64,000 bases of DNA from Carcharhinus longimanus. Taxonomy: Eukaryota. The notes below the pieces were generated by a model, which was not told the origin of the DNA, did not search any database, and worked only from the letters and a program-made list of their open reading frames with translations. Location of the stretch: the NCBI GenBank assembly GCA_030264375.1, contig JASCQW010000032.1, positions 38,513,229 to 38,577,228 on the forward strand, written 5' to 3'. Below, piece by piece: positions 18,801 through 48,800 of the stretch. Each line of letters opens with the position of its first letter. Position 1 is the first letter of the stretch. Position numbers and translations under genes: made by a program.

Positions 18801-21800
18801 ACTGCACCTGATTATTGGCCAGAACTGATGTTGGTGGAGGAGAACTTAGCATGAAAGCTAAATGAAGAAACATACACAATGTTTCAATGTCCTGATCGCC
18901 TTACTAGAATCTAAAACTTTAATGCATGCATTTCATTTTCTATTTGCGTGAAAACTTGTGTTTCTGGCTGTATTGAGTAGTTCCTACTTGAATAAAATTA
19001 TGCTGCCTGAAGACTGATTATGAATCATTGGTGCTCCTTGGCAAATAGCAAATATACCAGTGCTGAAATTATATTGGCTGTATATTATGCAAATCTTACA
19101 ACCTGAAAGCATGATGAAATGCGTAGACTTTGAAGGATGAGTTTCAATGCACCAATTTACCTCAGAAAACCAAGTTTACAGAGTTTGATCTCTTAGTCAG
19201 TCAGTCACATTGCTCTGCTTGCATCACTCTTTTCTTTTCCAACTGAAAATGGCACATGGCATCTAAATGTCTGGTTCGCATCAAACCATCTTCAGAAGCA
19301 TGCAAAAAAAAGCAACAAGTAAAACTGAATATATTTATGTTCAACTCTAAATTTTAGCAAAAAAGACACCATCGCCTGGAGAGGGAGACAAGAAGCCACT
19401 TAAACCGGGTGGAGGAAGGCCACCCTCAGAGGAACCACCTTTTGCAGGATTCCAGCTCAAAGCAGTCCCACTGAAATTTGTCAAAGAGTTGAAAGATATT
19501 GTGCTGGAGGAAGCTGAGTCTATAGGGTCTTCTGCCGTCTTTGAATGCCAGATCTCCCCATCTACAGCATTAACATCATGGATGAAGGATGGAAGCACTG
19601 TGAGAGAAAGTCCTAAATACAAATTTACCTCCGATGGCAAAGATAGAAAGTTACAGATTATTGACGTGCAGCTTTCAGATACTGGTGAATATTGCTGTGT
19701 TGGTCGCCTCGGCAAACAAGAAAAGACATCCACAGCAAAACTAATTGTTGAAGGTACTGAGCGTTGCTGTTTGAGATATTTCACAGCATAAATCATGAGC
19801 AAGACTGTGCAATGTATTAAAGTTGTGCAACTTAGGAACCCTGCTGAATAGTTACTTTCAGTCTAATTACTAAGGTCAAAAGGTCATATACACTGTTACC
19901 ATGTTATTTCACAAGATTCATCAATTCAGTGTAATCCAAGTACTAGATTTGGATCTTTTAGATGTTATGAAAAGCTTTTGCCATTTTGTATAATATGAAT
20001 ACTTTGTTTTTTTTATCGAAAATTAATTGATATTTTCCCAAAACATTTTAGAATTGCCAGTGGCATTCTTTAAAACATTGGATGAGGAAGTAACTGTCTT
20101 CAAAGGACAGCCCCTGTATTTGACCTGTGAGCTGACCAAAGAAAAACCAGTGGTTTGGAAGAAGGATGGTGAACCTCTTGAACCCACATCTGACAGATAC
20201 ACAATTAGCGTCATTGGGCTGCAGCATTCGATTACCATTCCAAGTTCAGATTTTGAGGATGCTGGAGTGTATTCTGTTGAGACTGCTAACATAAGATGTG
20301 AGGGAAAAGTTAATGTACAAGGTTAGTATGTACGTCTTCATATATTTGAAGCAGCAGTAAAGGGATTTGAGGATTTGGTTTTAGCTTACATATTTTTGTC
20401 CATTGTAGAGATTGTGAGGAAGTGGTTTGTTAAACCTGTTCGGGACCAGCGGGTCAAACAGAAAGAAAATGCCGTTTTTCAATGCGAAATTGCAAAAGAC
20501 ACACCAAATATTAAGTGGTTCAAAGGAGATGAGGAGATTCCAATGGAACCAAATGCAAAAACTGAAATTAAGAAAGTTGGCAAAATTCTTACTCTCACTG
20601 TGAAAAATGCAACACCTGAAGATATGGCTGAATACACAGTGGAGGTGGAAGGACAAGCTTCTACAGCCAACCTGTTTGTTGATGGTAGGTATTCTATTAC
20701 TTGGAGAAATGTGCACTCCTTTGCCCTACCAGCACTGATGATCAGTATTAGAAATAATTTTAGGTGGGGCACACACCACTTGTTCATATGTTTAATCTCT
20801 ACTGTCATAATGTTTAGTCACCATTGTGAATCTCTGTCAGGATTTTCTGTTCTTTTCCTACATGGACTAAAGGAATGTAGCAGCAGGCTTTAGTCACAAG
20901 TGGCCTTTTGAGCTAGATCCTGAACTTCATAGGTACTGACTTGTAGGTAACACTACAGTCAAGTTACTAGTTTAATAAAATGTTTCCTATGTTGCTTATC
21001 ATCATGAAATAGAAATCTCTGATAATTTTTTGACATTCCAATTCTAAAATTAAGTAATTTTACAACCAATGGAAAATTTCAACCTTTACCTACACAATTA
21101 AACCGAATCCTATCTACCCTAGTCCAGTCTTTTTCCAGCAATATCCATGACTCTTTCAATGCCCACAGTCACTTTAACAGTCTCCAATTTTCTAGTGCTA
21201 ATCATCTTCCCTTCACCATGGACATATATTCTCGCAATATCTCCATCCTCCACCAGAGTAGCTTACATTAACACTGCAATGAAGTTACTGTGAAAATCCC
21301 CACACTCTGTTCAGACCAATGCACCTAATCAGCATGTCTTTCAAACTGTGGGAAGAAACCAGAGCATCGGGAGGAAACCCACGCAGACACAGGGAGAACA
21401 CACAAACTCCACGTGGACAGTGACCCAGGCCAGGCAAATCTGGGATCCTGGCGCTGTGGGGCAGCAATGTTAACCAGTGTGCCACCATGCCACCCCCTGA
21501 AACCCACTGGATCTCACAGCTACCTTGGTCATACTGCCTCATTCCCTGTTTCGATAAGGACAGCATTCTATTTCCCAAGATTCCCCGTCTCAATTGCACC
21601 TGATGATGCAACTTGACATGGTACCACTTCTGTGCCATCAGCCTTCATATTCAGTGGATCATCCGCTGCTGTTTGCACTACCTCCACTCACCAAACACCT
21701 CTATCCTCCTCTCAGCTTTCACCACTTCGCAGGAACCCTACCCTTCATTACATTCCTAATTCTAATTGCAGATTGTTGTTGCCAAGTCTGGTATATGTTT

Positions 21801-24800
21801 TGCAAAACAAGTGGAAATCATACAAATCAGAAATTCACAATCAAGAAAACTTGTGTAGACTTTTCAAGTCTGCTTTTGATGGTATTACTTGTGGTTGGAT
21901 ATTTTCAGCCTGCTGTTCTAATGGGAAAATGACATTGAATGTTCTATTTTAGAACGGGAGATAGACATACTTTCAGAATTGCAAAGCGTGGAAGTGTATG
22001 AGAAAGAGACAGCCACTTTTGAAACTGAGATCTCTCAAGACGTTCCAGTTGAGTGGAAGCTCAAGGGAGAAATCCTCCGCCCGTCACCTGTAAGCTTTTC
22101 TTCAAAGCTTGAATCTTTGTCATTAAAAAAGTGGAATTCAAGATTGTAATACTGTTTTGTAAAAATGTACCTAAATTATGATGTTTTTAAAAATTTCAGA
22201 CCTGTGAAATGAAAGCAGATGGTGCAAAACGTTTCTTGATCCTTCACGATGTCAAACTGGACCAAGCTGGTGAAGTTGTCTTCAAGGCACGCAATGCCAC
22301 ATCCATTGCTTACCTAAGAGTTAAAGGTAACTAATAATCCATAAAGAAAATGTCAGCGCAGTTTTATTTATGATGAAAAAAGATGAGAAATTTTAAAGTA
22401 GTTTGTTTTTTGTTTGATTAAAATGTAATTTTGCTTGCAGAAATTGAACTTGACTTTGAGGCACCACTAAAAGATGTGACTGTTCCTGAAAAGCACCAGG
22501 CACGATTTGAGTGTGTGCTTAACAAGGAGGTTCCCAAAATTCTGTGGTCAAAAGGTACCGACATTCTTAAGGCTGGTGATAAGTATGATTTAGTTGCTGA
22601 TGGAAAGAAACACATCCTTGTTATCAATCAGTCAACCTTTGATGACGAAGGAGATTATAGCGCTGAAATTGTGGACAAGAAATCGACTGCAAAGCTCACT
22701 GTAACTGGTGAGTCCTTTTAATTAATTACATTTCATAGTTAAACAATTTGCTGATTTAATGTGTTGGTAATATTTAATTGATCTGACCTCAGTTTGGCTT
22801 ATGGTTTGGTAATGTGATAATGTATTTGTGAAGCCTTACTTAAATATTCTGTTGATGATTTTTACATTGTCTCTAGTTGACTTAACTTCTGTTTTTCTGA
22901 AGCACTGAGAAACCTGTATAACTAAAGATGGAGATCCATCATTCAGAATATCACATACGTAGTATCCTTCTTGTGCAACATGAGGCCATTAAGTTTGCAC
23001 TGACCCTCCAACAGGGCATCTTACCCAGGCCAACCCCTGTAACCCTGCATATTTAGCATGGCTAATCTACCTAACCTGCATGTCTTGGGACTGTGGAAGG
23101 GAACTAGAGCACCCAGAGGAAATTCATGCAGACATGAGGAAAATATGCAACATGCAAACTACATGCATATAGTGACCCAAGGCCAAAATCAAACACGGGT
23201 CCCTGGTGCTGTGAGGCAGTAGTGCTAATCACTGCACCACAGTGCTGCCATATTAGATCAAAGCCCAGGACTGATCCGGGTTTGGGGAGTTCCCTTACTC
23301 TAATGCCAGGCTAGTTAGGCCACTTAAAAAGTACTATATTAAAGAAAGAACTTGTATTTATTTCATCGCTTTCTTCATAGTTTAGATGTACCAAAGCTCA
23401 ATGAAATACTTTTGAAGTGTAGCTCCTGTTGGAATGGAGGGAAATAGCAGGGTATAAAAATGTCAATTTCAGTTGATTTATTAGTTACACGATTTTGAAC
23501 TGTACAGTAACCGATCCATGCATTACTTCATATTTCAGGCATGAGGTTGAAGTTCATTACGCCACTGAAAGATCAGACAGTCAAAGAAGGTAACACAGCT
23601 CATTTTGAATTTGAGCTTTCGCATGAAAATCTCCCAGTGACCTGGTACCGGAATGAAGACAAAATTCACCCAAGCAGAACGGTTCTGATCTCCACTGATG
23701 GGAAGAAGCATGTATTAGAAATTAAAGAAGCAACTCTTGATGATACATGTCAGATACGAGCAGAAGTTGCTCAACTATCCACAAAAGGACAACTGAATGT
23801 CATTGGTAAGAATTTAGTAAAACAATGGTTTGGAATTCTGTTGTGCAGAATGCAATACTAACTGAGGGTGCAGAGAATAAGGCTGAGGGGGCTCCGGCAT
23901 TGACATGAACAGGAAATTCATGTCTGACCTCCAGCATTGGGATCAAAGGTCCAAATTATTCTGGCAGTTGAGGGAAGCAAGCCAGCAAAACTGACACCAA
24001 ACAGCAAGAGGGTAATTTTACTGGTTTAGCACATCCTTATAACTCATTAACATGGAAATTTTTGTGATTGAATAGTAGCTTTAAAATTAACTGTGAACCA
24101 CATGGGATCACGGGTCTTCAGTTGCCCGGTTGTTTAAACTTGAAAGTGAGCAGGCAGTTTAGTCTATGAGAGGAAGGTGAGCCACTTAGACCCGCCTGCC
24201 ATTTTCAGAACAAAGAGGAGGCTATGATGCATCACAGGGAAGATGCAGTCATTATAGAGAAGGTGAGAATCTTTGCAAGAATCTGAAGGTCTTTTGAGGA
24301 GGATGAGAGTCATTGTGGGGAGGTGAAAGGACATCTCAGGAAGGGAGAAGAGTCACTGTGGGAGGACAAGGGCCATCTCTTGGTGGTGGGGAAGGGAACA
24401 AGAGCAGATTAAATTGCCCGCAGGACCTTGGTGACACATTTCAAACACAGGTACCAGGTGTTTCCTGAAGACTAGGGACACAATGAAGGACATATCTTTG
24501 CCAGGGCAGCGTTGCAACATTTGTGAAGTTTTTAGACCTTACCATGGTCTTGGCCTCTTGGTGTTCCTGGAACCCTTAGTGAAGAAGTAGCGGTAGTCTG
24601 GAACTTCAAAGGAACAAATGGTAGGAGGCCATTGTAAAGTGACTCAGCCTGTGGTTGGATCAAACAGTAAGAACTGTTAACAGGAAGCCCAAAGTGATGC
24701 AGTCAGGTGACAACCATTGCTGCGTTTCACAGTATACAGGCCTTGCCTGAATTATCTTCAAATATCAGAGGAATGATGCCAACAGAAGTTCTGAATGTCT

Positions 24801-27800
24801 TGGGAAGCCTTTATGTACCAGTGCGTCCTGCTACAGAATGATCTGCAGCACCTGGAACTTTGAAGAGACCCAATTCCTGTGACTTTGATGGGCTGGTATC
24901 ATTAAACTTCTACGCCAATGGCTGTTTCCAGGGTGTCACTGGAGATGTGTGGCATTTATGAGGCAGCCGCTCACCACTGTGTCATCAAAGTGATCAGTTC
25001 CCTGTTGAAGAGAGCCAGAGAGTTAGTGCAATATACGACTGACAAAGAGAGCCATGCCAACAATCTGTGGGCTTCAGGACCAGTGCAGGATGTTATCCAT
25101 TGAATCCATATGGCAATTAGGGCTCCCTGGGAGCAGCCTGTGCTATTTATCACCAGAAGTGGTCCAGCCCATTCACTTGCAATTGGTGTGGGACCCAGAG
25201 GAAACAAATCTTCAGCTTTGTGCTTCAGGTTTCCAGAAATTTCACAAGATGCATACATTCCACACCCCACCCAGATGCCACAGATCTTCAAGATCACTAC
25301 ATGCCTACACACATATATAATCACAGAAACAATGCACCATTCCAGCCAAGGAGCATTATAATGAATGCCATTGATCAACAAGAGCAATGGTTGAGTAGAC
25401 CATTGGCTTGTTAAAAATAAAGTATCTAGACTGCTCTTGCAGGACTCTACAATTGGTATCTCAGTGTGTCTCTGGGATTAATGGCACCTGTGTGCATTGC
25501 ATAACCTTGCAGCAAAGGGAGGAGGCCTTTGCTGATTCAGGAGCTTGGGGAATCACACTCCTCATCTGATGATTAAGATGGAGAACAGGGAGCAGAACAG
25601 GCAGATCATCAGATTGAAGCTCCTTCACCAGGTGCAAAGGCAATGAAAAGACCCACAAGAGAAATCCATGAGCTCCACACTGACACCAGATTCCAGCAGG
25701 CAAAATGCTTTGACAAGCCTTCTGCTTTAGATCTTATGCTCATGCGACCTCCAAATGTCCTTCCAACAGCAACCATTATCCATCAAGAAGTAACATCATT
25801 CTTGTCACTCCAACCATGGAGAAGTCAATAGTCTGCTTTCACTGATATATACATGCAACTTATTCTGCAAGTACCCATATGGCTAACCAGGGGACAACAT
25901 TAGCATCATCCAAAATACAGAAATAAAGGAAATAAGAATATTTAATCACATGCTATTATAAGCTATCAACATGGTGCATCTACATGTGGTCTCTCATGCT
26001 ATCATGGGTGCTCTGACTTGGTATCACTTCAATGTCAACAGCTGAGGTGGAGAGAGAATGGTTGTGCTCATTCTTGTTGCCCTCTCTGCTTGTTTCTGCC
26101 AAGTTCTGAATTCTCCATAGTGATTCCACTGTGCGATGCCCCATGCCTGCGATGACCTTGGTGACCATCCTTTGATTGCCTGAGCCTAGAAGATCCTGGC
26201 AAGCTGAGGGACTCCTGCCTGGATGCTGATGTTTCTTTCATTGCCATGGTTACTGGAGGCGCTAGAGCCAGTGATTGAGGAGCGGCTGCTCACCTTCTGA
26301 GAGCCCTGAGAAGAGCTTCTAGGAGAGGGAGCCTGGTGCTTCTCCTTCATCTCTCTGCTTGACAGCAGCTCCCTATCCACTTGAGGAAGAGGGAGACCTC
26401 GAGGAATGTCCAGTCATCTCATCCCCCTCTTGCCTGGTCCCTGTTGCAAAGAGCTCATGGCCAATGCAGCAATGACCAGGTCCTGCAATGTCTGCCGGTC
26501 CGAGTACATACCCAGCAGCAACTGAATGGTCTGCTGAATCTGACTCTGCCTGATGGTCACAGCCTCTCCATGGAGAAAATCATGCCTGAGACATGGGCAG
26601 AATGCTTGGTCAGAATAGACTCCTCCATCATCTGCATATGCCTATACATGGCAGTTCTACTAGATGTTCCTCTGTCTGTTTTTCCATCACCAGAAGGTTT
26701 TTATTGCCTGTCACCAGAGACCCATCATCTGCTAGATGCCCTGTTTGGACCTGGCTTCCAACAATCCTCTGACAACCCTCAGCTGTTGAAGCTTCTATCA
26801 GCTGTTCGGGCATGTCTGGTATGTTCATTCAGTCTGATTCTGAATGGTTATCACATTCATCGAGGTGAATGTATCTGCACTGATACATGCACCCCTGAGT
26901 CTTCAATGTTATCCTCCTCAAAACTGAAGGGACATGAATGACAGAGCAGTTCCCTCCAGAATGCAAAGAACACCAGTGGAGAACACAAAGAATTAGATTC
27001 ACATTTTGTTCAGGTGTGAAGGGCCAAATGACCTACTCCTGCTCCAATTTTATGTGTTTTTTATAATCTCACTTCTCATCCCTTTCTGATACATGTCTCC
27101 TTTCTGTCCATTGATGGACACCAACTGGAGACTTCTTCTGTCTCTTCAGTCCCATTTCACTGTCTTCTATTGCTCAGCTGCCCCGCTCTCTGTCCAGGCT
27201 CATTGTCTCCTCCTGTGCTGATATGTGATCTAATGTTAGCCACTGCTCCACCCACCTTTTTTTGTTCTTTGCTGTGTGTACTATGTTTTCCTGAGGACAG
27301 AAGGGGAACAAATCTCTGCCTAATGGACATCTGACCCCCTGATCATCACGCATTCCTCTGGCAAGGTAATGGGGCCTGCTGGTTGTCCATTCTCATGACA
27401 TTTGGACAACAGTGGAAGCATGAACCTTAAACTTGGCGGCCACAGGCATTCAAGCCTCATCTTGTATCTGATGCTGGGCCTTACACTTCTTTCACCTGTC
27501 TTCCTACTCCTTCCTCTCACTGGGGCACATTGCACGTTGCACTCATGAGAGCGATTTTGTTCCAAACATTCAGTTATGCTCACCCTGGAAACATGGAAGA
27601 GGTAGTTGACCCTCTTTCTTCATTCACCTTTGTTCATGTGAGCCATGTGCCACTCCCTGCATGATGCTGATCGCTGATGAGGCGAGAAGTCTGAAGCATG
27701 AACTTGAGATGCTGTTGCAAGAGAGAAAGTTGAGGCTGAAGGCATTGTCAGGATTCCCTTTTGCCTCTGCTACATTGAAGCTTCTGCGTTGTAGTCACTG

Positions 27801-30800
27801 TCACTCAGAAACGGTTCCTGGACCCCTGACTCTATCAGCTGGTTGGCGTCTTCCTTCCAGCTCCCATTGCAGAATTGGCTGGGCCTGGACACCATTGCTT
27901 TCATTATCCAAAGCCACCATGTAATTATAGTTGGCCAGTTATCCCTGCCAGTAATGACAATGTCACTCACTCCAGGTCTGTCGCTGGTTGGCACACTACG
28001 ATGACTAAATTCTGCCTGATATGTTGTGTACAATCCTCTGTGTAACAGAACAGATAAAGAAATGATTTTAAAAAAGAGGGCATCAGGTATTCCTGATGAT
28101 TCACTTCTTGAAATGTTTTAACTGTTAACAGGTGTGAGACTCTTTCTCTTCAGGCAGTAAATTAGCTGTTTGTCTCTCATCCACAGAGGCTGATCCTTAT
28201 TTCACTGTGAAACTCCAAGATTATACAGCTATCGAGAAAGATGAAGTAACTCTTGAATGTGAACTCAGCAAGGACGTGCCTGTAAAATGGATGAAGGATG
28301 GCAAGGACATCATAGCTTCAAAGACAGTTTCAATGAAGGCTGTTGATAAACGCCGTATTGTGACGATCAAAAAAGTTGACAGTAAAGACAAGGGTGACTA
28401 TGAATGTGACTGTGGAACGGACAAGACAAAAGCCACTTTGAATATTGAAGGTATCGAACTTCTGACTGAGTACAAGTAGATTCTTCAACAATTATAAAGT
28501 AACATTCTTTCCAAATGTTCAGTTTAAACATCCATTTTTAACATTGTCTGCAGCTCGCATCATCAAGATAGTGCATCCATTGCATGGTGTAGAAATCTTT
28601 GAAGGTGAAACTGCGCACTTTGAAGTGGAGATCTCAGAAACAGATGTGCATCCTCAATGGAAGCTGAAGGGCGAAAGTTTGTTTATGTCACCTGTAAGTT
28701 GTTTCCTTCATTTATCTCAAAGTTAAGCATTCCTACCTCCTATGTTGGAATTATTTGGTAATAAATGATTTCACTTCAGAATTATGTTAATTTAATTAAA
28801 CATTATAAAATCAACTTCCTAATAATGTTCAGTAGAACTCAAGGCCCTGAATATTTGTTCCTCAAGAAAATTTTGGGGTAAATTTTCTACAAATAAACAT
28901 CAACCTAAAATATCTTGGGTGATTTTGTATTGGCAGCAATGTGAGATTATCGAGGATGGCAAGAAACATCTCCTTACCCTCTACAATTGCAAGCTAAGTG
29001 ATTCTGGAGAAGTTTTCTTCCAGGCTGCTAATGCTAAGTGCGCAGCTAATCTGAAAGTCAAAGGTAATTTTTAATACATTTGGAAGAATTTGTTACTTTT
29101 TTCTGAAATTTGAATAATTGTAATTCAGGCTCGTAATGTAGTACTATTGTTCCATTAATTGTATGTGTGATTTACATATGTTATATCAGCATATTAAAAT
29201 ATATATATAGGTATGTAATACATATTGTATATATCTATTTGAATAATTGGTCATTTTTTACTTCCTACACTCCCATTCAGAAATTCCACTCACTTTCATT
29301 GTACCACTTAATGATGTGAAAGTATATGAGAAAGATGAAGCGAAGTTTGAGTGTGAAGTGTCCAGAGTGCCCAAGACTTTCCGTTGGCTAAAAGGAATTG
29401 AGGAGCTTAAACCTAATGAGAAATTTGAAATTCTATCAGATGGGACAAAACATATGTTGACTGTTAAACAGGCTGCATATGATGATGAGGCAAAATATAT
29501 GTTTGAAGCAGAGGACAAGAGGACAAGTGGCAAACTGATTATCCAAGGCAAGAGAATGGAGCAAAAACAATGTATGAATTCCTTAGTTAGTTTTCTTGGT
29601 GAGGCGGCTTGCATTTGATTAAAAATTCCTTTCTTCATAGGCATTCGACTTGAATTTACCAAACCTCTTGAAGACCAGACTGTGAAAGAGCGTGAAAGTG
29701 CAGAATTTGTCACTGAACTTTCTCATGACAACATACCGGTTGTGTGGTACAAAAATGACAAACGACTGCATCCAAGTAGGTCCGTGACTATGAAAGATGA
29801 GGGTAAAGTCCACTCCATTACATTCAAAGATGTGACTATTGATGATACTTCCCTCATCAAAGTCGAAGCTATGGCTAAAAGTTCGGAGGCCAAGCTTACT
29901 GTAATCGGTAGGTATTGCATATGGAAACGTGTGAATGAATTTTGCTCACCAAACTTTGACACATTACATTTGTTGTTTGACTTTTTCTCTAATTTGCCTT
30001 TTTTTCTGGTTTTCTTAGAGGGTGACCCATACTTTATAAACAAACTGCAGGATTATACAGCTGTAGAAAAGGATGATGTTATCTTCCAGTGTGAGATCAG
30101 TAAATCTGCTGCTCCAGTTAAGTGGTTTAAGGATGGAAAAGAACTGATTCCTTCAAAGAATATTCAGATTAAAACGGATGGGAAGAAGCGTATACTGATT
30201 ATTAAACGGGCTCAGAAGAGTGACCAGGGACAATATTCATGTGACTGTGGCACTGATAACACATCAGCCAAACTAAACATTGAGGGTAAGAGTTTATTGA
30301 TAGCATTTAGATACCCAATATCCTTTGCCCTTTGTATCTGTTTATTGTGGTGAGTGAACTTGCATTTTTAGTAAATTAGATGAAATTATTTTTAGTTACT
30401 AGTAATGTACTTTTCCAGGAAAATAACATTTGCACATTATTTTGCTTCAGAACGTGATATTAAGATATTACGTCCACTGTACAGTGTTGAAGTCACAGAA
30501 ACAGAAACTGCTCGTTTCGAGACTGAAATTTCTGAAGAAGATGTACATGGCAATTGGATGTTGAAGGGGGAGAAATTGCATCCATCTCCTGTAAGTTTTA
30601 AACATTAGACAAGCGCTGAGGTTTCTCTTGTCTTTTTTCTCCATTTCTTTCTTGCTGTCTTCCTTCCTTAAAGGTTTTTCTTTTTTTTCCTTAATTTAGG
30701 ATATTGAGATTAAAAAGGAAGGCACAAAACATTTTCTTACACTGTACAATGTGCACATGGATCAAGCTGGTCAAGTTGAATTCCAGGCTGCCAATGCCAA

Positions 30801-33800
30801 AACCGATGCCCATTTGAGAGTTAAAGGTAAACCTGCTGAATATCATAGATTAAGAATGTTAATAGCCAAGAAATATGCACTTCTGAAATTCTTAAGACAT
30901 TTTGGCATTTTATGAGGGATCTATATTTCTCTGCATGTTATGAATATCCAGAGCAATCTACAATGATGTTTTCCATTATAAACCACTACAGGTTTCCAAA
31001 ATTATTGACCACCTCAATAAACCCTTGATAAAGGGTTACATTGTTGGCAGCTTAAAGCAGAGAGCTGCCATATTTATTGTTTTGTTATTGGATAATCCCC
31101 TTTTTGGCAGCTGCTAAACTGCTGGTGGATGGAATTGGGCAATTGCCAAGCACACAGCTGTTTAACTAAACAGATCTGCCAGTACTCTTGGATGGGTTGT
31201 TCCTCAAGTAGAAATGGGGGGGAACAACCACGGTAAGCAGTTTGAATGTGATGTAGGTCAGGTTTACTGTAAAATTCTTCAGAAAGTAAAATGTCGAGAT
31301 ACAGATTTTGAATTCACCCGTTGTTTTTATGGCCAGGCCTTGGTCATCTGGGTGGTTGAATAGTCACACTCTGTTGGGACAGCTGAAATGCATCTTTCAT
31401 TTTCTTGAGACTAATGGGCACACCCATCTCTTTTGCATTTAAAGCTCGGGTGATTGGTTTACTTCGGCCCCTCAAGGATGTGACGGTAACCGCTGGAGAT
31501 TCAGCTACTTTTGAATGTGAACTCTCATACGAAGGAATTGAAGTGCAATGGTTCTTGAAGAACAAGTTACTTGAGCCCAGTGAAAAGGTATGATGAAAAA
31601 TACTAAAACAAAAATAATATCCATGAGTTACCGTGTGAATGTGCATGGTTGGCTACACTGTGCAAAGCAACCTTTGTTTTAGAGTTTAGAAAAAAAACTT
31701 GAGCTATTAATGCCTGACTACCGAAACCATGATTTTGCAAACCAAATATCCTTAACGTAAATACCCATGATAAACTTATTCCACTTTCAATTATCTGAAC
31801 GTTATATTATCTAGAAAAATAAGGCAAGGCTGAACTATAGTTGAAATAAAGCATTAGAAATTTAAACAATGTTAAATTGATGATAATTTCTTAGTATTTT
31901 GCAACAGTTGAATTACATCAATATCTTTTCAGGTGTCTGATAATCCCCCATTGTTTTGAAAGTTGGAAAAGATAGTTTGTATGAAGACGTGATTGTTATT
32001 TGAACTGGACAGTCGCCTACTTTAAACATGACTTGAATAATCATAAAGTGAATCTATTAATTATATAAAATTCTTATTTTGGATCAGGTTGTTACACGCG
32101 CTGAAGGCAGAGTGCACACTTTCACCCTCAGAGACGTCCAGTTGGAGGAGGCTGGTCAAGTCAAACTCACTGCTAAGGACTTCGCAACATCCGCTAAACT
32201 TATTGTTAAAGGTGCGTAATGCATTATGCCAATTATTTTCTTTCCAAAACGATATACTCGGCAATGTACTTTAAGACTGATGTGCTGAATTTTCATTTAC
32301 ATCTTTTACAGAGCCACCAGTTGAATTCACTAAACCTCTGGAGGACCAGACAGTTGAAGAAGAAGCCACTGCTATATTGGAATGTGAAGTCTCCAGAGAG
32401 AATGCCAATGTTATATGGCTTAAGGATGGAAAAGAAATTCATAAAGGCAAGAAGTATGATATAATTGCTGATGGAAAAGTTAGAAAGCTTATTATCCACG
32501 ACTGCAAGCCTGAAGATGCCAAAACATATACATGTGATGCCAAAGACTTCAAAACTTCCTGCTTCCTCACTGTGGAACGTAAGTAGAATGGTGTCCAACG
32601 TTCATCCTCTCACATTCAGAGTTACATTAATGAAAATGCGTATGTGGCTATTTCTCGACCAGTAAGACTTTGTTTCTTTCACAGCACCTCGTGTTGAATT
32701 TATAAAGCCTCTCACTGATCTTGAGGTGAAAGAAAAAGAAGTGGCCAAATTTGTATGTGAAGTCTCACGTGAAAATGCAAAGGTTTGCTTTTTTGCTTAT
32801 GTCATTCTATCAGTATTTATTTTTTAAGTTTACTTCTTTGATGAAAATTAAAACGCATTTATTTTAATTTAAACAAACTTATGGGTTAAATAACAATCTC
32901 ACCTGCTGCGAGACACATATGCTTTCATTTCTTTATCAATTGCAGAGTGAGGTTACAATTAATGAGACTTCATGGTGAAACAAATGTTTTTGTATATGTT
33001 CCTGTATAATGGTCTCTTCCACCCTTTCGGGTCTCAAAATTAATAAATTATCAGCATTTCCATTTTTCTTGGGGTTGCATATATGTTCAAGGTCATTTAC
33101 TAATCCTCATTTTTCCTGCACATGTGCAGGTGGTGAGCGCTAAATTATACATTCTAGACCTGGTAATAGCCCTGGGACACTCCTGAATCCAACCTTCTTG
33201 CCAAGTGCCATCAACAAGCTCCCCCCCCTCCCCCGCCACCAGTCCAGGCCTTCTTTGCCAGCTCCATCCCGTATACTAACCCCACTCCCATACTGCCTCA
33301 TCCCAGTACCCCAAGTGTCAATTTGCATGTTATATTGCATTTTCAGTACCTTTATAGGAGCCTGGGAATTCCAGGCTTCCCCAAGAATACAGGATATAAT
33401 TTCCCTGCTCTTGTAACTACAAGACACTCAGATTTGAATGTGCCTTGCAATGCTGTCCATCAGTAGCCTGAACGCCTAGATGTTTGTGACAAACAGCATA
33501 ACCTCAGATTTCTTAGGCCTTTTACGCAAATTTAACATTCTGGAATATGTCTCCAAATGTAACTAACCGAACAGAAACCTTCCTTTTTAAGCATATTCTG
33601 TCACCAGAATTGCATGATTGTTTCCAGGAGTTTAATCAATCAACATTCATGAAAATTAGAATTTCTATTAGAACTTGTAGTCAGATTTGTAAAATTGAGT
33701 GTTCACTTTACTCCATGCATTTACAGGTAGATATAAAAAAAGAACCAGCTCAGTAAAGCCATTCAGAGGTGAAAACCAATTTTCCTATTCCACTCTCACA

Positions 33801-36800
33801 AAATGATGTTAATTCTTAATACTCTCTGAAATGACCTTGCAAGCCTTTTAGCTATAAAACAACCACAACGAAGCAGACCAATAAGGGACAAACAAGAAAT
33901 ATTTGCCTAGACCCAGCCAGTAGGTTAGGCCAAAGCTCAGACAACCCAAGCCATTCAACCCTAGGAAAAGAAAACATTTTGCTGATCTCTGGGAACTGAG
34001 TGTTCCTGGGTATGTCTTATCACATTTATTGAAGAGATCTATGGAATAGAGACTACTGGGAGCAGAGGCATAGTTGTAATACTTCTGGATTGGTAATCCA
34101 CAGTCTTGGACTGATGTTCCAGAGATATGGGGCTGGATTTCCCAAATAGTACATGGTCCCATTTCTGGGACAGGGAACAGTTTCCAAGCCCATGCATCAA
34201 CTGAGCCACCAGAAACAAGAAACGCACACCCCCTTCCCGGTCCTCCTCAATAACATCTGACAACTTAAGAATTGGAAGAGCTATCTCAATGACTGACCTA
34301 TGCTACAGAAAGAGGAAATTCAGCTCATCAAGCCCGCATGCCAACAACAATCCCACCCAAACGCTATCCCCATAACCCCACGTATTTACCCTGCTAATCC
34401 CCCTGACACTCAGGGTAATTTAGCATGGCCAATCGACATAACCCACGCATCTTTGGACTCTGGGAGGAAACCAGAGCACCCAGAGGAAACCCAAGCAGAC
34501 ACAGGGAAAACGTGCAAAATCCACACAGTCATCCAAGACTGGAATTGAACCCAGGCCCCTTGCACTACGAAGCAGCAGCGCTAACCATCGTGCCACCATG
34601 CCACCCATGGTCATTCTCAGAGAATCATACCTTACAGCCAATGTCCGAGACTCCTCCACCATCATCCATGGGCATGTCCTGCCCCACCAACAGAACAGAC
34701 CCATCAGAGATAACAGCACAGTGGTTTAGAGTCAGGAGGGAGCAGCCCTCAGATCCTCCATATTGACTCCAGATTGAAAGACATCATGGACAAGGAAACC
34801 TCTTGCTGATTACCACCTAGTGCCCTCCCTCAACTGAGAGATCAATGCTCCTTGATGTTGAAGATCAATTCAAAGAAGCACTGGGGTTGCAAGTGTACAG
34901 GATAAATCTAAAAATGTAACCTAGCCCATATTGTATTTCTTTTCAAATTATATAGCAGCTGATGATTTCCTCAGGGCATGGTGTAGAATTACACAGAATC
35001 TACAGCACAGAAACAATCTTACACTGGCGTTCGTATTCCATACAAACCTCCTCTCACCCTGTTTAGTCTATCTAATCCTCATCTCACTAGATCATATCCT
35101 ACTGTCCTCTTCACCCTAATAAACTTATCTAGTCTCCCTTTAATTGCATCTGTGCCATTCAAGTACTTCACTGTATAGACAGAAAAAGTATCTTCCACAC
35201 ACTGAAGTGGACATATAGGCTTGTGGGTTGTCAGACACGACCACTAATAGTACTACTCCAGATCAATGATTATATTCCACAGGACCTGTCTGGAAATATT
35301 TAGCACCTGGCCACATTCATCTCTGTAACTGCAACAATCTGTGCTCAATGAAAAAATTAACATGACATCTGAGGCGGAATTTTCCCATCCCACCTACCAT
35401 GGGAATTGGAGTGAGCAGAATAGGACCATGCAAAGGATATTGGGCAGGATGTTCTGGTCTTGGGGTGGACATGGATGGAAAATCCCACCCTTGCTGTTAT
35501 TTTGTTAAGGAAATTACAGGGACTTGTGTACTTCTGTGTACACCTGTGTCTCTTTCAGGATCAATAATTCATATAGTACCAGCATGTTAGATTCTAACTT
35601 CCCATGATTAGATTTGCCAAATGATTCTCTAGTAAATAATCTGTATTTTGAAAACACTGCTTTAAATATTTTGAAAATGTTTCACATGGTGTTTTAAATA
35701 AAGGATTTGTTAAATTATCCTGAATAAGGCATTGTGGATTTTCTTTCATTTTAGGTTCGTTGGTTTAAGGACAGTGTTGAAGTGAGAAAAGGCAAAAAGT
35801 ATGACATTGTTGCTAAGGGCAAGGAGAGGATGCTTATCATTCACAAAAGCAGCTTTGATGATGAAGCTGAATATGAATGTGATGCAAGGACAGCTAAAAC
35901 CTCAGGATTGCTTACAGTTTTAGGTAATCAATCAGATCAGAGCAGTACATAGTTTTATCTTTCAGGAACATGTTTTAGACATTATTGATCCATTTGTACT
36001 GACATATGTTGCCATGTTTTGCAGAAGAGGACGCTGTCTTCACAAAGAACCTTACAGATGCAGATGTTACCGAGACAGATAGCATTAAATTAATTTGTGA
36101 AGTTTCGAAACCAAATGCTGATGTAAGATGGTATAAGGGAGACACAGAGTTGCCTGAAATTGGTCAATATGAACAACTTACAGATGGCAAAAAGCGCATT
36201 TTAGTAATTCAGAACACCAACCTAGATAATTCTGGGGAATATAATTGCAGACTTCCAACTGCTCGGACTTCATGTGAACTGAAAGTTCATGGTATGTATG
36301 GTGGTCTATTCTGTTATGAGTTTGTTTAATATGGCCATGTCGTAACTTTATCCAATGTTAATTATCCTCTTGTCTTTATTACAGAATTGGCAGCAGAGTT
36401 TATTTCTCGACCACAGAATCTGGAGGTAGTAGAAGGAGACAAAGCAGAGTTTGTCTGTTCGGTATCAAAGGAGACCTACGAAGTGAAATGGCTTAAAGGT
36501 GGCAAAGAGCTTGTATCAGATGATAAATATGAAATCGCATCTGATGGCAAAAAGCGAATGCTCATTATCAAGGACTCCATACCAAAAGATGAAGGAACTT
36601 ATGTTGCCATGATTGGTACCTCAAAAGCACCAGCAGAACTGACAGTTATTGGTAGGTCATGTGAACTAAATTGTATACGTACAAACAGGTTCACAGGAAA
36701 TAGAAGCATTGCATGTGCACTGTCAAATTACATTGAATGTTGCTGAAAAGACAGACAAGTTACTGAAGCATTTTGTTCATCAAGAATAAATGCAAAAGTG

Positions 36801-39800: not shown

Positions 39801-42800
39801 CCAGTAATCAAGCTGACAGATCTCAACCTTGTGATCGATGCTGGAAAGCCGTTCACGATGACACTGCCATATGATGCTTACCCACGTGGTGAAGCTGAAT
39901 GGTTCAAGGAAGACACTGCTACTGCTGAGTATGTCAGTCTGCCCAAACGGAACATTGACACAACTGCAGAAATCACTAATTATAGACTTTTTGATCCAAA
40001 GAGAACTGACAGAGGAAGATACAAGATTGTGATTCAGAATAAACATGGAAAGGGTGAAGCATTTATAAATTTGGATGTTATTGGTAAGTATTCTTTGTTA
40101 CACATATGTTTTATAACTGTGTTATTGTGAAAACTATTCTTAAATTTTTTTCTAAAATGTGTTTCCTGAAACAATATCACCTTTCCGAATTTACAGATGT
40201 GCCTGGCCCAGTCAAGAATTTGAATGTAGTAGACACTTGTGATGGTGAGGTCAGCCTTGCTTGGGATGAACCTGACACTGATGGTGGTAGCAAAATCCTT
40301 GGCTATGTAGTAGAACGACGTGATGTGTTGCGCAAAACATGGACCTTAGTTACTGATCGTGCTGACAATACTGAATTTACCGTGACTGGTCTCCAAAAAG
40401 GAGTAGAGTATCTATTCCGTGTCAGTGCAAGGAACAGAATAGGCACAGGTGAACCTGTGGAAACTGATAAACCCGTTGAAGCTAAGAATAAGTTTAGTAA
40501 GTATCAGATTGTCTTCATTCACTAATTTAAGCTCTGAAATCCAATTCATTGCTATGGGTCAGTGTCAGAAAATAAGAATATTACTACCTTTTTCCACCAG
40601 GTGTACCTGATGCACCACTGAACGTCCAAGTGAAAAACGTGAACAAATTTGGTGCCACCATTACATGGGAACCACCAGAATATGATGGTGGATCAGAAAT
40701 CACAAACTATGTTATTGAGTTACGTGACAGGACCTCTGTCAAATGGGAACCAGCTATGACAACCGGAGCAGATGAACTCACCGCTCAGCTGAATGATGTA
40801 GTAGAAAACAGAGAGTATATATTCCGTGTCAGAGCAGAAAACAAAGCCGGTGTAGGAAAGCCCAGTGCAGTTTCACATCCTGTGAAGATCATGGATCCAA
40901 TATGTTAGTATCGGATCAGAAATATGTGTAGTAAATGTTCTTCAATTTTTATGTTTGTACGTTCCCTCATATGATTTCTCCTTTTTTCAGACAAGCCAAG
41001 TCCACCTATTGAATTTGCTCATTCAAAGCAAACCAAAGAATCTGTACAGTTGAAATGGGAACCTCCTCTAAAGGATGGAGGAAGTCCAATACAGGGCTAC
41101 ATTGTTGAATTATGTGAAGAGGGCACAGATAAATGGAAACCCTGCAATATAAGACTTATTCCTGAAACAACTTTCAAGGTTATTATCTCTCATGTAATTA
41201 ATTTGTTAAGAATACCCCTGATGACCTAATAAGAGCTAGAGGCAACTGCTTTCCTAATGGTTATTTTAGAGGTGCAATTCACCCACAATCCATCACCAAG
41301 TCACAGTTTAATTGTCAGCTGATGGTAATAGTCCCTGGGCAGCTGATTTTCCTGGACCTGTGATGTGCTCGGTGAGATTCATGAAATAGCGTTTCAAGTA
41401 GGAGGTGTTAATCAGCATTAAGTTTCATTCACAACTTCAGTGCAGATTTTTTGTGAATGGATTTGCAAATTTGGTACATGGTATCTGTACCATTCAATGC
41501 AGCATTGGACTAACTGATGGGTCACATGTTTAGGGGACATCAAGGACATGCTTTCTCTTCACATGATTGTGCATAGGAACTCAGCCAGAGAATATGTGCT
41601 TTGTTGCTAGGTCATATGGAGAGTTTAAAAATCAATGGTTTTAAGTTTATTTATCATTGTCACAAGTAGGCTTACATTAATACTGCAATGAAGTTACTGT
41701 GAAAATTCCCCAGTTGCTACACTCCAGCATCTGTTTGGGTACACTGAGGGAGAGATAGCACGGCCAATGCACTTAACCAGCATGTCTTTCGGNNNNNNNN
41801 NNNAACTGGAGCACCCAGAAACGCATGCAGACACAGGGAGAATGTGCAGGCTCCACACAGACAGTGACCCAAGCTGGGAATCGAACCTGGGTCCCTGGCG
41901 CCGTGAGGCAGTAGTGCTAACCACTGGTTCTTGAGTTCTGAGCAATACTGTTGATAATCTTGAATCAACCACATGGTACAGGACTGGATTGACAGAAGCC
42001 AGACTAGGTAGGGTTGCAGGTTCACAAATATTTGAAGATGAGATTTTTTTGAAATCATTTCTTCAGGAATAAAGATTTACAGGATTTTATGTAGGATAGG
42101 ATGTAGGTCAGAAAATTCTGAAAGAACTGAGGTTTATCAAGGATGGACTTCAGGGAATTAGTGAAGAAAGCATTAGAGAAATGAAGGCTTGAGGTGTTGA
42201 AGGATTTCACAATTTTATTACTGATATGGATGATAAGATAGACAAGATAGAAATTAGACTCTATACTCTAACTGGGAGTGAGTGGATGAAGAGACAGACA
42301 GAGAACTGGATATTGATAACTTCTGAAGAGAAAATGGAGATAGATGGTGGAGAAAGTTCAGAGGAATCAAGATAGGTTGAGTTTTGATAGATATTTATTG
42401 TTTTAACTCTAAAATATTTGTGACCTTATACTTGCTGATGGTTGAAAAAATGTGCTCAGAATACTTGTACTGTTTTATATTACACGGCTTTTCATTTTTG
42501 TCATTCCAGGTTACTGGTCTGAAACCAGGAGTGAAATATTATTATCGGGTATCGGCAGAAAATGCAGCAGGTGTTTCAGATCCAGCTGATGCCCTTGGCC
42601 CACTAACAGCTGATGATCCTCATGGTAATGGAAGTCCTTTTCTAAATACAAATATATTAAAGGCTACAAAATTGAGCTTTTTAAAAAAATTATGATATTT
42701 ATAGCTTTTCAAGACTGATTGCACTTATCTCTTTCAGTGGCTCCTACCCTTGACCTGAGCGCATTCAAAGATGGTCTTGAGGTCATTGTTCCAGAACCAC

Positions 42801-45800: not shown

Positions 45801-48800
45801 GGAACCTGCATATATTGATGAACCTGTTAATGTGTCTGCACCAGCAAGTAAGTATTTAGCTATGTTAATCATCCAGCTGGAATGGTAGCTTATTTCCTTT
45901 GTAAGTAAAGCCAAATAGATCTATTTGATTCATTTTTAAATGTATGCAGTATAGTTACTCTTTAAATATTTCATAGTGTTTCACTAGTCACATGCTAAAA
46001 TATATCATGTTAAAACATTTGTAGTGAAAGAATTTGCATTGCAAGCTCAGATCTTTCCAAAAATGACTTAGCAAGCATTTTCATAGAACAGCTGTATAAA
46101 GTTGAGATCTAATTTAAGCTAAGCATGTTTTCTTCTCCACTCTCTTAATGGATGAATTTTTCTGGTTTTTTTCCAATATTGTCTCAGGTGAGGAAATCAG
46201 TATGCATCCTGTCAGCTGCATTGCTGGTTTTTCCTGCCAAACTTTTAAATATTTGGGGAACAAAAATGTTAGCAGCATATCCCATGCCGTCATGCTGGTG
46301 GAGCAGGCTCTGAATGAACCCACAGTGTCCCCCCAATCTAAAAAAACAATAAGGAAAGGATCCCCTTAATGCACATGGGACCCCCGCCCACAGACACATT
46401 CCCCCCCCATACCTCTGGGAACACTCCCTCCTGAACCTCCCCAATGGAAGCACTTCTGGGCACTGCCCCTGCATTCATGGGCAGTCCCAGGGTACTGCCC
46501 AGGCATGACCCTCTCCCCACTGGGGACACTACTCACCTGAGTGCCCCCAGCAGAGACTATTTGCCAGGATCCTGTTTTACAAAAGCTGTGGTAAACGTTG
46601 GCATGAGGGGAGTCCTAATTTGGGGGATAATAGAGCGGGGAAGCCTGCTAATGGTTTTAAAATGTATGGTAATGGGTTTCCCATCATTGCATGACGGGAA
46701 CCTTGTTACATTGTTGGTGGGGAGGCAGGGACAATCCAATTAGGAAATCCCACTGGTGTGAAAGCCATTTTGGGGTTCCTGCTGGATTTTCTGACCCGCC
46801 NNNNNNNNNNGAAAACAGGGGAAGAAAATCCCAGGTGATGTTTTCCCATCTGGATCATCTGTGGATTTCCTTTGGCTGGCATCAATTATTCTTTCAGTCA
46901 GGTACCTTCCCCTATTTTGGAGAAGATGCCTGTGCAAACACAAAGTTTTTCAATGATGGGCATTCAACTACTCGACTTCTCTTTTTCACTTCCCTTCCCT
47001 TTCCCTTCTCGTGTAGGTCTCAGTCACAGCTGAGGTCTAACAGGGTGCCAATATTCTACCTTCTTTAGCAGCCTCTTGGGCTGTGGCAGTAGCCCTACCA
47101 TGAACCTGCCATAATTTGACTTGTGAAATCACTTTGGTGGTGATGATGGATGGAGCTTAAGTCATGTCCTACTGCAACATTGACTGGAAGGAAAATCCCA
47201 CCTTTTAAACAGGATTTGCCAGCCCTGCCTGCCTCCAGGATTGTCTGCCAAACCTTTTGGCTAGGCCACTGAATCTCCTGCAGATGCCCCCCCACAATGA
47301 AGTGGGAAAGTCCCAGCCTATTGTGACTCACATTCATTAATACTACCAATCCCCATATATTTCATAAAATTATCATTCAGAGAATCGAACATCATTTGCA
47401 TTGAACCATTTGAGCTGTATTAGCATCAAACATAAACTGATTTAGACCCTTTGAGGAAATTTGTCTTAAGTATGTTTGATGAGTTTTTTTTTAATTTTTG
47501 GACTGTAGGTTTTAATTTGTAATTCTGCACTTCACAGCTGTTCCAGATCCTCCAGAAAATGTCAGATGGAGGAACCCATCTTCCAAAGGAATCTTCCTTA
47601 CATGGGAGCCACCGAAATATGATGGAGGCTCCAGAATTAAAGGATATATGGTAGAAAAATGTCAACGTGGTGCTGAGAAGTGGGAGCTCTGTGGAGACTC
47701 AGTCAATGAATTGAAGTGAGTTTTGTATTTAATTTTCTGATGTTTTCTATGTTTTCAATAGTACACAGTAAATACTTAAACTGCTGATATGTTAAACAGG
47801 ATGGAAGTGACCGGTCTCAATGAAGGGGAATGGTATTCATACCGTGTTAAAGCTTTGAACAAACAAGGGGCCAGCAAACCAAGTAAACCCACAGATGATA
47901 TACAAGCAATCGATCCAAAAGGTGCATTGTTATTGATATAAATGTATTGTTCCAAAGCTGTATCATTTTAACAAGCTTTATTCAAATACTTCAGACCTAT
48001 TGAAAATGTTGATAGATTTATTTCACAAATATGCTCATTGTGTTAAACTTTGTCACTGCTGCAAGTTTAATTGCTTTACAAGGAAATAGAATGTTAGTTT
48101 TTTCAGTAACTTACTATAATGCATTTACAGCTGAGATATATTAATAAATTCAGTGAGCTTGTGCAACAAACAATTCTAATTTCCCCATTAATTCTTATTA
48201 ATATTTGGGAGCCACGAATCAGGCATGCAGTTTTCAATGCCTGATTCTCCAATCAGTAATCTGTCAAATGTGGCTTTAAAATGGAAGCAGAGCCTTACTG
48301 AATTGAAACCATATTTTCTATTTTAATTACACAACTTTTTGACTAAAATTATAACATTTCCCCCCCAACCCCCAACAGAGGCCCCGGAGATTCATCTTGA
48401 TGTTAAGCTATTGGCCGGCATTACTGTGAAGGCTGGGACAAAGATTGAGCTCCCAGCTTTTATCTCTGGCAAACCTACTCCAAAAATTACATGGACAAAA
48501 GCTGAGCACTTGCTGAAGCCTGATGACAGACTAACTATCGAGACAAAGCCTGATAGTTCCACTGTGACAGTCGTAAACACCAAAAGGAGTGACAGTGGTC
48601 CTTATCTTATTGAAGCAGTAAACACCAGTGGCCGTGCCACTGCTGTTGTTGAAGTCAATATTCTAGGTAATTCAAATGTTAAGATTCCTTTTATCAACTT
48701 AAGTAAAGCTTGAAATAAATTAATTCTCTTAAACATGTACTGACTGGTTCCTTTGTTTACAGACAAACCTGGACCACCAGCTGCATTTGACATCACTGAT

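Follow-up and report, generated by a model that had tools for sequence, protein, structure and literature searches.

A candidate spliced first exon in the orthologous Cronos promoter intron of shark titin

Does the titin gene of the shark Carcharhinus longimanus contain an internal start comparable to Cronos, and in which form would such a start be written in the genome? Cronos is a titin of ~2.3 MDa whose separate N-terminus lies at the I/A junction (PMC7478974), and it is supported by RACE, by open, H3K4me3-marked chromatin and by protein data (PMC4720518). It is needed for zebrafish skeletal sarcomeres (PMC4720518) and is unable to maintain adult mouse sarcomeres (PMC7478974). Cronos is a proposed reason for the position-dependent severity of titin truncations, and its role is disputed. 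We analysed a window of 64,000 nt of the C. longimanus genome, for which a preliminary description had proposed a Cronos-type start with a short first exon in one titin intron.

The titin intron upstream of I96

The intron in question (30827-31444, GT..AG) lies at a phase-1 junction, as the exon 30700-30826 ends in phase 1 and the acceptor AG occupies 31443-31444. Its length of 618 nt, read at first from the letters, was confirmed by the contigs of three of the four RNA-type runs, in which it is spliced out. The exon 28553-28693 matches the PDB structure of titin I27 (E 6e-16). Since we take I27 to be I91, counting the domains onward from this exon places the intron between I95 and I96, in agreement with the earlier assignment. 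The distal I-band Ig domains (21943-32210) form repeating four-domain blocks that share one exon pattern (I87-90, I91-94, I95 onward). The features at the junction are as follows:

30700-30826, plus strand: titin exon encoding the second half of Ig domain I95 and orthologous to zebrafish e115 and human e239; ends in phase 1, with RNA joints; its end fits the primer peptides QLRVKAR and SSAHLRV
30827-31444, plus strand: orthologue of the Cronos promoter intron, 618 nt; RNA splice in 3/4 runs, single-copy, identified by primer mapping
31445-31587, plus strand: titin exon encoding the first half of Ig domain I96 and orthologous to zebrafish e116, mouse e223 and human e240

The primers published by Zou et al. 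(PMC4720518) translate to QLRVKAR at the e115/e116 junction, SSAHLRV upstream in human and mouse, and PRVIGL downstream, and the zebrafish guides translate to DYTAVE (e113), VRPLYS (e114) and CELSY (e116). All six peptides land in order on the exons I94, I95 and I96 of this locus. At the nucleotide level the fit of the primers is modest (14-17 of 20-23 positions matching), and one primer fits a paralogous exon better, since the region is built of repeats; the mapping is settled by the peptides and their order. The zebrafish-type leader MSSPESK, described below, is joined to the I96-orthologous exon in three records (P0020, P0023 and P0028). These translated sequences identify the intron as orthologous to the one with the Cronos promoter, zebrafish e115-e116 and mammalian e239-e240, which upholds the orthology proposed in the preliminary description.

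The intron occurs at one place only in each of the two DNA searches of the genome that covered it, so no repeat was found in it, and a search for tandem repeats was likewise negative; the view that it holds no recognisable transposable element was thereby sustained. Only one strong titin match was present in the genome. The comparison with the zebrafish-type Cronos intron that had been proposed at the outset was run with the teleost copy, and revealed no similarity (score 22; mean of shuffles 26). The protein encoded by the three flanking exons is closest to Callorhinchus (106/130 identical residues), followed by starling (101), frog (99), catfish (94) and grenadier (88). This modest lead among the five labelled taxa fits a cartilaginous-fish source.

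Known Cronos starts and decay of the ancestral leader

Transcription of known Cronos starts 110 nt upstream of the exon in zebrafish, 257 nt in mouse and 256 nt in human, and the Cronos Met stands 7 (zebrafish) or 12 (mammals) residues upstream of the exon (PMC4720518). The zebrafish probe primer of the same paper encodes MSSPESK reading into the acceptor, and a fish-type genomic locus (L002) contains a branch point, an ATG and MSSPQSK directly before the acceptor AG. Read in this way, known Cronos runs unspliced into the exon and is without a separate first exon; the word "unspliced" is our reading of the primer and of L002, and is absent from the available passages of PMC4720518. Among 141 related ORFs, namely 148 protein-search matches minus 7 normally spliced models, a contiguous Met was present at codon -6, -7 or -12 in 126 and at -10 in none, in a set that is biased to ORFs having a start, whose members are related, and in which the taxa of unnamed records are inferred. 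The Met positions were trusted despite this bias because their sharp positions equal those of PMC4720518. These data contradict the statement in the preliminary description that known Cronos has a short first exon adding a few residues, as its unique residues correspond to an unspliced 5' extension of the exon.

A contiguous Met leader rich in Ser is likewise present in a second fish-type titin copy of RSIGLL type (L003 1-260; proteins such as P0056, P0065 and P0139), probably the ttnb/ttn.1 paralogue, so that both teleost paralogues may have a Cronos start. Some tetrapod-type records (P0004, P0005 and P0098) carry both a -12 and a -6/-7 Met, and may mark an intermediate step towards the start used in mammals.

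The age of this start can be approached from Callorhinchus milii, in which UniRef100_A0A4W3IPV7 (98 aa) starts with MFSPTSK-ARVIGLL, with a Met at -7 and 5/7 residues as in zebrafish MSSPESK; the entry is an unreviewed fragment named only as an Ig-domain protein, a model rather than a demonstrated transcript. We scored leaders with a profile of 69 distinct bony-vertebrate leaders from which A0A4W3IPV7 was held out, and used leave-one-out for the 62 full-length leaders. The Callorhinchus leader scored 12.8 bits, in the mid-range of true leaders (-0.6 to 20.6, n=62) and far above the best of the ordinary phase-1 titin acceptors of the window (3.1 bits, n=17). The resemblance of MFSPTSK to MSSPESK is the strongest indication in this analysis that Cronos existed before cartilaginous and bony fishes diverged and is of jawed-vertebrate age. 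The dating of Cronos to the jawed-vertebrate ancestor in the preliminary description is therefore supported by this leader, and the mini-exon on which it had been based is not its support.

The corresponding position of the shark locus reads differently:

31423-31443, plus strand: codons -7 to -1, where the ancestral Cronos leader stood; PISFAFK in this genome, without Met, leader signature lost

PISFAFK scored -1.3 bits, under all 62 true leaders and fourth among the 17 phase-1 titin acceptors. In this genome, a Met upstream of the I96 exon was sought at -6, -7 and -12 and none was found, and one is present at -10. The Ser/Pro-rich leader of MSSPxSK type, a criterion derived here rather than taken from a paper, is absent at this locus. 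Judged by this sequence, the ancestral unspliced start peptide is lost in this genome. Because Callorhinchus is as distant from the bony vertebrates as C. longimanus is, the loss is lineage-specific. Protein searches for further shark starts returned no close relative, and a control exon matched a single cluster at 85%, with nothing higher than 90% across the whole query; this blank means little, since sharks are barely present in the searched proteins. A metagenome scan returned two fish-type loci and two weak non-orthologous matches.

The Met at -10, absent from the preliminary description, raises the possibility that Cronos persists here in its usual unspliced form. The features concerned are the following:

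31345-31385, strand not assigned: E-boxes CATCTG (31345) and CAGCTG (31380), both within the 212-nt first intron predicted for the spliced start
31411-31416, plus strand: branch-point-like CTAAT overlapping the in-frame ATG 31414; unspliced product MGTPISFAFK-ARVIGLL, C at -3

A promoter near the E-boxes at 31345 and 31380 would then serve a start at ATG 31414 (MGTPISFAFK-ARVIGLL), and the ATG and donor further upstream would be chance. This start would have the architecture of all known Cronos, and the frame from ATG 31414 matches that of titin and stays open across the I96 exon. The start has also moved before, as seen in the -6, -7 and -12 classes, and the mammalian exchange of the -7 Met for a contiguous -12 Met is a simpler route, which the Met at -10 makes available here too. 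However, a comparable unspliced ATG occurs in 22% of shuffles and in 3/22 introns, which is chance level, and ATG 31414 overlaps the branch-point-like CTAAT. Its -3 base is C, whereas both teleost loci have A, none of the 141 ORFs uses -10, and the leader signature is lost. Moreover, seven ATGs between 31192 and 31388 (within 222 nt) precede it, the ORF from 31329 overlaps its start, and the RNA contigs show no intronic depth. We consider this unspliced start unlikely.

The candidate first exon and its putative promoter

The second candidate start in the intron requires a splice:

31214-31232, plus strand: predicted first exon, coding part; gaaATGg in strong context, MGGNNH plus 1 nt (19 coding nt)
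31233-31238, plus strand: predicted splice donor ACG|GTAAGC, 10.8 bits

Joining 31232 to 31445 reads MGGNNHARVIGLLRPLKDV and stays open without a stop through the I96 exon (MGGNNH-ARVIGLL). The strong Kozak context of ATG 31214, the consensus donor at 31233, the phase match and the reading frame that the preliminary description had recorded were all confirmed; traced through the I96 exon, both the spliced ATG 31214 and the unspliced ATG 31414 are in frame with it. With a matrix built from the donors of the window itself, excluding the GC donor of the junction 29547-29641 and the dubious junction 20209-20462, donor 31233 scored 10.8 bits. It exceeds 21 of the 22 real donors and is the best of 13,286 intronic positions, and the real upstream donor scored 7.6 bits.

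The chance of such a pattern was estimated with 20,000 dinucleotide shuffles, the strict pattern being a G|GTRAG donor with an in-phase open ATG in Kozak context. The strict pattern occurred in 1.5% of shuffles and the relaxed one (without Kozak and -1 G) in 17.7%, and these figures overstate the case somewhat because the motif set is post hoc and the relaxed pattern is common (18%); the intron itself, unlike the motif set, was fixed beforehand by the literature. In window tiles, which include real exons, the strict pattern was present in 4/92 and the relaxed pattern in 26/92. Among the 22 annotated introns (14,306 nt), the strict mini-exon was found in the intron 30827-31444 only, and the minus strand of the 64 kb gave 0, 1 and 0 matches by phase. 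The introns at the equivalent position in the domain block, after 22326 and 29063, contain neither CAGCTG nor a mini-exon. The mini-exon of the preliminary description is better than expected by chance.

A strong donor may also belong to an internal cassette of full-length titin, either a 21-nt microexon (31212-31232) by which the I95-I96 linker would gain EMGGNNH, or a poison exon of 122 nt (31111-31232) that shifts the frame. TAG 31209-31211 does give an open in-frame 21-nt exon, and the acceptor before 31111 reaches 6.0 bits compared with 3.1 for the real I96 acceptor. The microexon acceptor, in turn, is weak at 1.9 bits, with only 2 of the 22 real acceptors lower, and neither exon appears in the contigs of the three runs. 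As a cassette would also leave the Kozak ATG and the loss of the old leader unexplained, we regard it as very unlikely.

Upstream of the candidate exon lie the motifs behind the promoter reading of the preliminary description, at the positions it had given, together with a CAATTG that it had not listed:

31026-31095, plus strand: TGATAA (31026), CCATATTTAT (31068) and GGATAA (31090); present, at chance level
31108-31160, strand not assigned: two CAGCTG E-boxes (31108 and 31155) with CAATTG (31140) between them; putative core of a muscle promoter

This reading was retained in part. The CAGCTG boxes at 31108 and 31155 are present, and a third at 31380 had not been mentioned. A cluster of at least three CAGCTG in 618 nt is rare: it arises in 0.1% of shuffles and 1.4% of sliding windows, and window density puts it at 0.6%. 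A muscle promoter likely has its core in the stretch 31108-31160. The GATA and A/T motifs had been over-read, and were rejected as evidence since they stand at chance level: WGATAR occurs in 82% of shuffles, two GATAA in 44% and the CC-A/T element in 71%. The CC-A/T element CCATATTTAT was also considered as a CArG box and is not a true one, and a MEF2 consensus sought in the intron was not found. The CAG of the first CAGCTG (31108) also reads as a splice acceptor. Such clusters are not unique to this intron: elsewhere in the 64-kb window, at least three CAGCTG within ~600 nt cluster at 26039-27175, 40786-41340 and 45874-46213.

A start site ~256 nt upstream of the exon, the distance in mouse and human, would fall just 5' of ATG 31214, which stands 231 nt upstream. 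ATG 31192, upstream of 31214, has T at -3 and would open an out-of-frame 36-residue ORF after splicing. The predicted first intron (31233-31444, 212 nt) contains six further ATGs.

RNA evidence, proposed explanation and comparison

RNA was examined as assembled contigs of 4 of the 15 RNA-type runs, three of which cover the locus. The contigs show canonical splices only, without intronic cover, and one run has a depth of 245 across the canonical joint 30826-31445. The 31232-31445 junction proposed in the preliminary description did not appear in the contigs of the three covering runs, which lose minor forms and cannot show starts, and these contigs contained no depth in 30913-31417 and no loose end at 31445. 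This negative is weak because contigs drop minor forms, the tissues are unspecified and slow muscle of the mouse lacks Cronos (PMC7478974). In run X8, a joint from 30799 to 29639 was considered as a back-splice and rejected; its loose end resembles the exon 22200-22326 and is read as a paralogous-exon match.

The same RNA data bear on the possibility that Cronos was lost in this lineage, in which case decay would have left an ordinary acceptor in place of the leader, and the other motifs would be chance or relics, possibly an enhancer. The decay of the leader, the canonical splice alone in three RNA runs and the failure to align with the teleost intron agree with loss, which is plausible because in the mouse Cronos is insufficient to maintain the sarcomeres of adults and does not occur in slow muscle (PMC7478974). 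However, loss needs a mini-exon of ~1.5% probability together with an E-box cluster of ~0.1-1.4% to have arisen by chance in the very intron named by the literature, and a constitutive titin intron would be liable to mis-splicing if it kept so strong a donor unused. Loss is, in our judgement, rather unlikely.

As the old start is gone and the mini-exon pattern occurs in the same intron, the spliced first exon is favoured. We propose an orthologous Cronos intron in which the ancestral start peptide was lost and a likely muscle promoter would give rise to a shortened titin whose first exon is new and spliced (ATG 31214, donor 31233), an explanation that we consider somewhat better than evenly supported. 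It is built on the observed intron identity, the loss of Met at -6, -7 and -12, the decay of the Ser/Pro-rich leader, the open and phase-matched MGGNNH-ARVIGLL and the strength of the donor. Myogenic bHLH factors would bind the E-boxes at 31108-31160, and transcription would start at ~31165-31210, near the mammalian start-to-exon distance. The weak-context ATG 31192 would be passed, or never seen, by ribosomes, so that translation would begin at 31214, and 31233-31444 with its six further ATGs would be spliced out. The predicted product begins at I96, without the Z-disc anchor and the spring region, and like Cronos it would be located on the thick filament. On this view, an exon that served both as first and as internal exon would have given way to a dedicated first exon once the lineage had separated from chimaeras.

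Because known Cronos is without a spliced first exon, the mini-exon is not orthologous to any known exon and therefore, if real, would be a lineage-specific replacement. No spliced precedent was seen among the 141 ORFs, although such a search would miss a spliced start. The broader claim, that Cronos is at least of jawed-vertebrate age and that this shark lineage abandoned the leader sharing the acceptor sequence and evolved a dedicated spliced exon (MGGNNH) 231 nt upstream, we hold to be evenly balanced.

Compared with Cronos titin of Zou et al. 2015 (PMC4720518), the shark locus has the same intron, phase and downstream exon, and the same predicted C-terminal titin from I96 with a few unique N-terminal residues. 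In contrast, Cronos as presented in that paper is read unspliced into the exon with its Met at 7 or 12 codons, whereas the shark locus is without that Met and the Ser/Pro leader, and its best candidate needs a splice. Cronos is further documented by RACE, chromatin and protein data (PMC4720518), whereas the shark start is predicted from sequence. Callorhinchus milii (A0A4W3IPV7), a cartilaginous fish with the same exon and the closest of the five taxa, keeps a contiguous MFSPTSK, unlike the shark locus. In the sense of hybrid first/internal exons, as far as these are set out in the accessible parts of the reports (10.1101/2021.05.27.446076; PMC11797052), we read the known Cronos exon as internal in full-length titin and first in Cronos, and the shark locus would be such a hybrid resolved into a separate first exon and a plain internal exon. 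The candidate is an above-chance feature in the right intron; by its start architecture it is not Cronos, but in function it is likely similar to it.

If the spliced start is real, ~450 million years of retention and a start rebuilt after loss of the leader would indicate that the isoform was selected and the leader peptide was not, and the shark form would be the earliest known case of a Cronos that has a dedicated exon and junction. Since the spliced form has a unique junction, RNA-seq could count it directly and separate it from retained introns and the T2 breakdown product. In the literature searched, no paper joins Cronos, titin and shark, and the word Cronos is absent from the main text, as far as available, of a 2025 paper on elephant-shark titin (PMC12241362).

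Three further features of the window were observed. The intron 29548-29640 between I92 and I93 appears to be GC-AG (AAG|GCAAGA), and an RNA loose end fits this junction. The intron 29908-30018 (111 nt, I93-I94) is in frame and stop-free (ORF 29619-30353) and is spliced out in two runs; its retention would add 37 residues. The intronic stretch 34419-34766 may resemble a tRNA-derived shark SINE.
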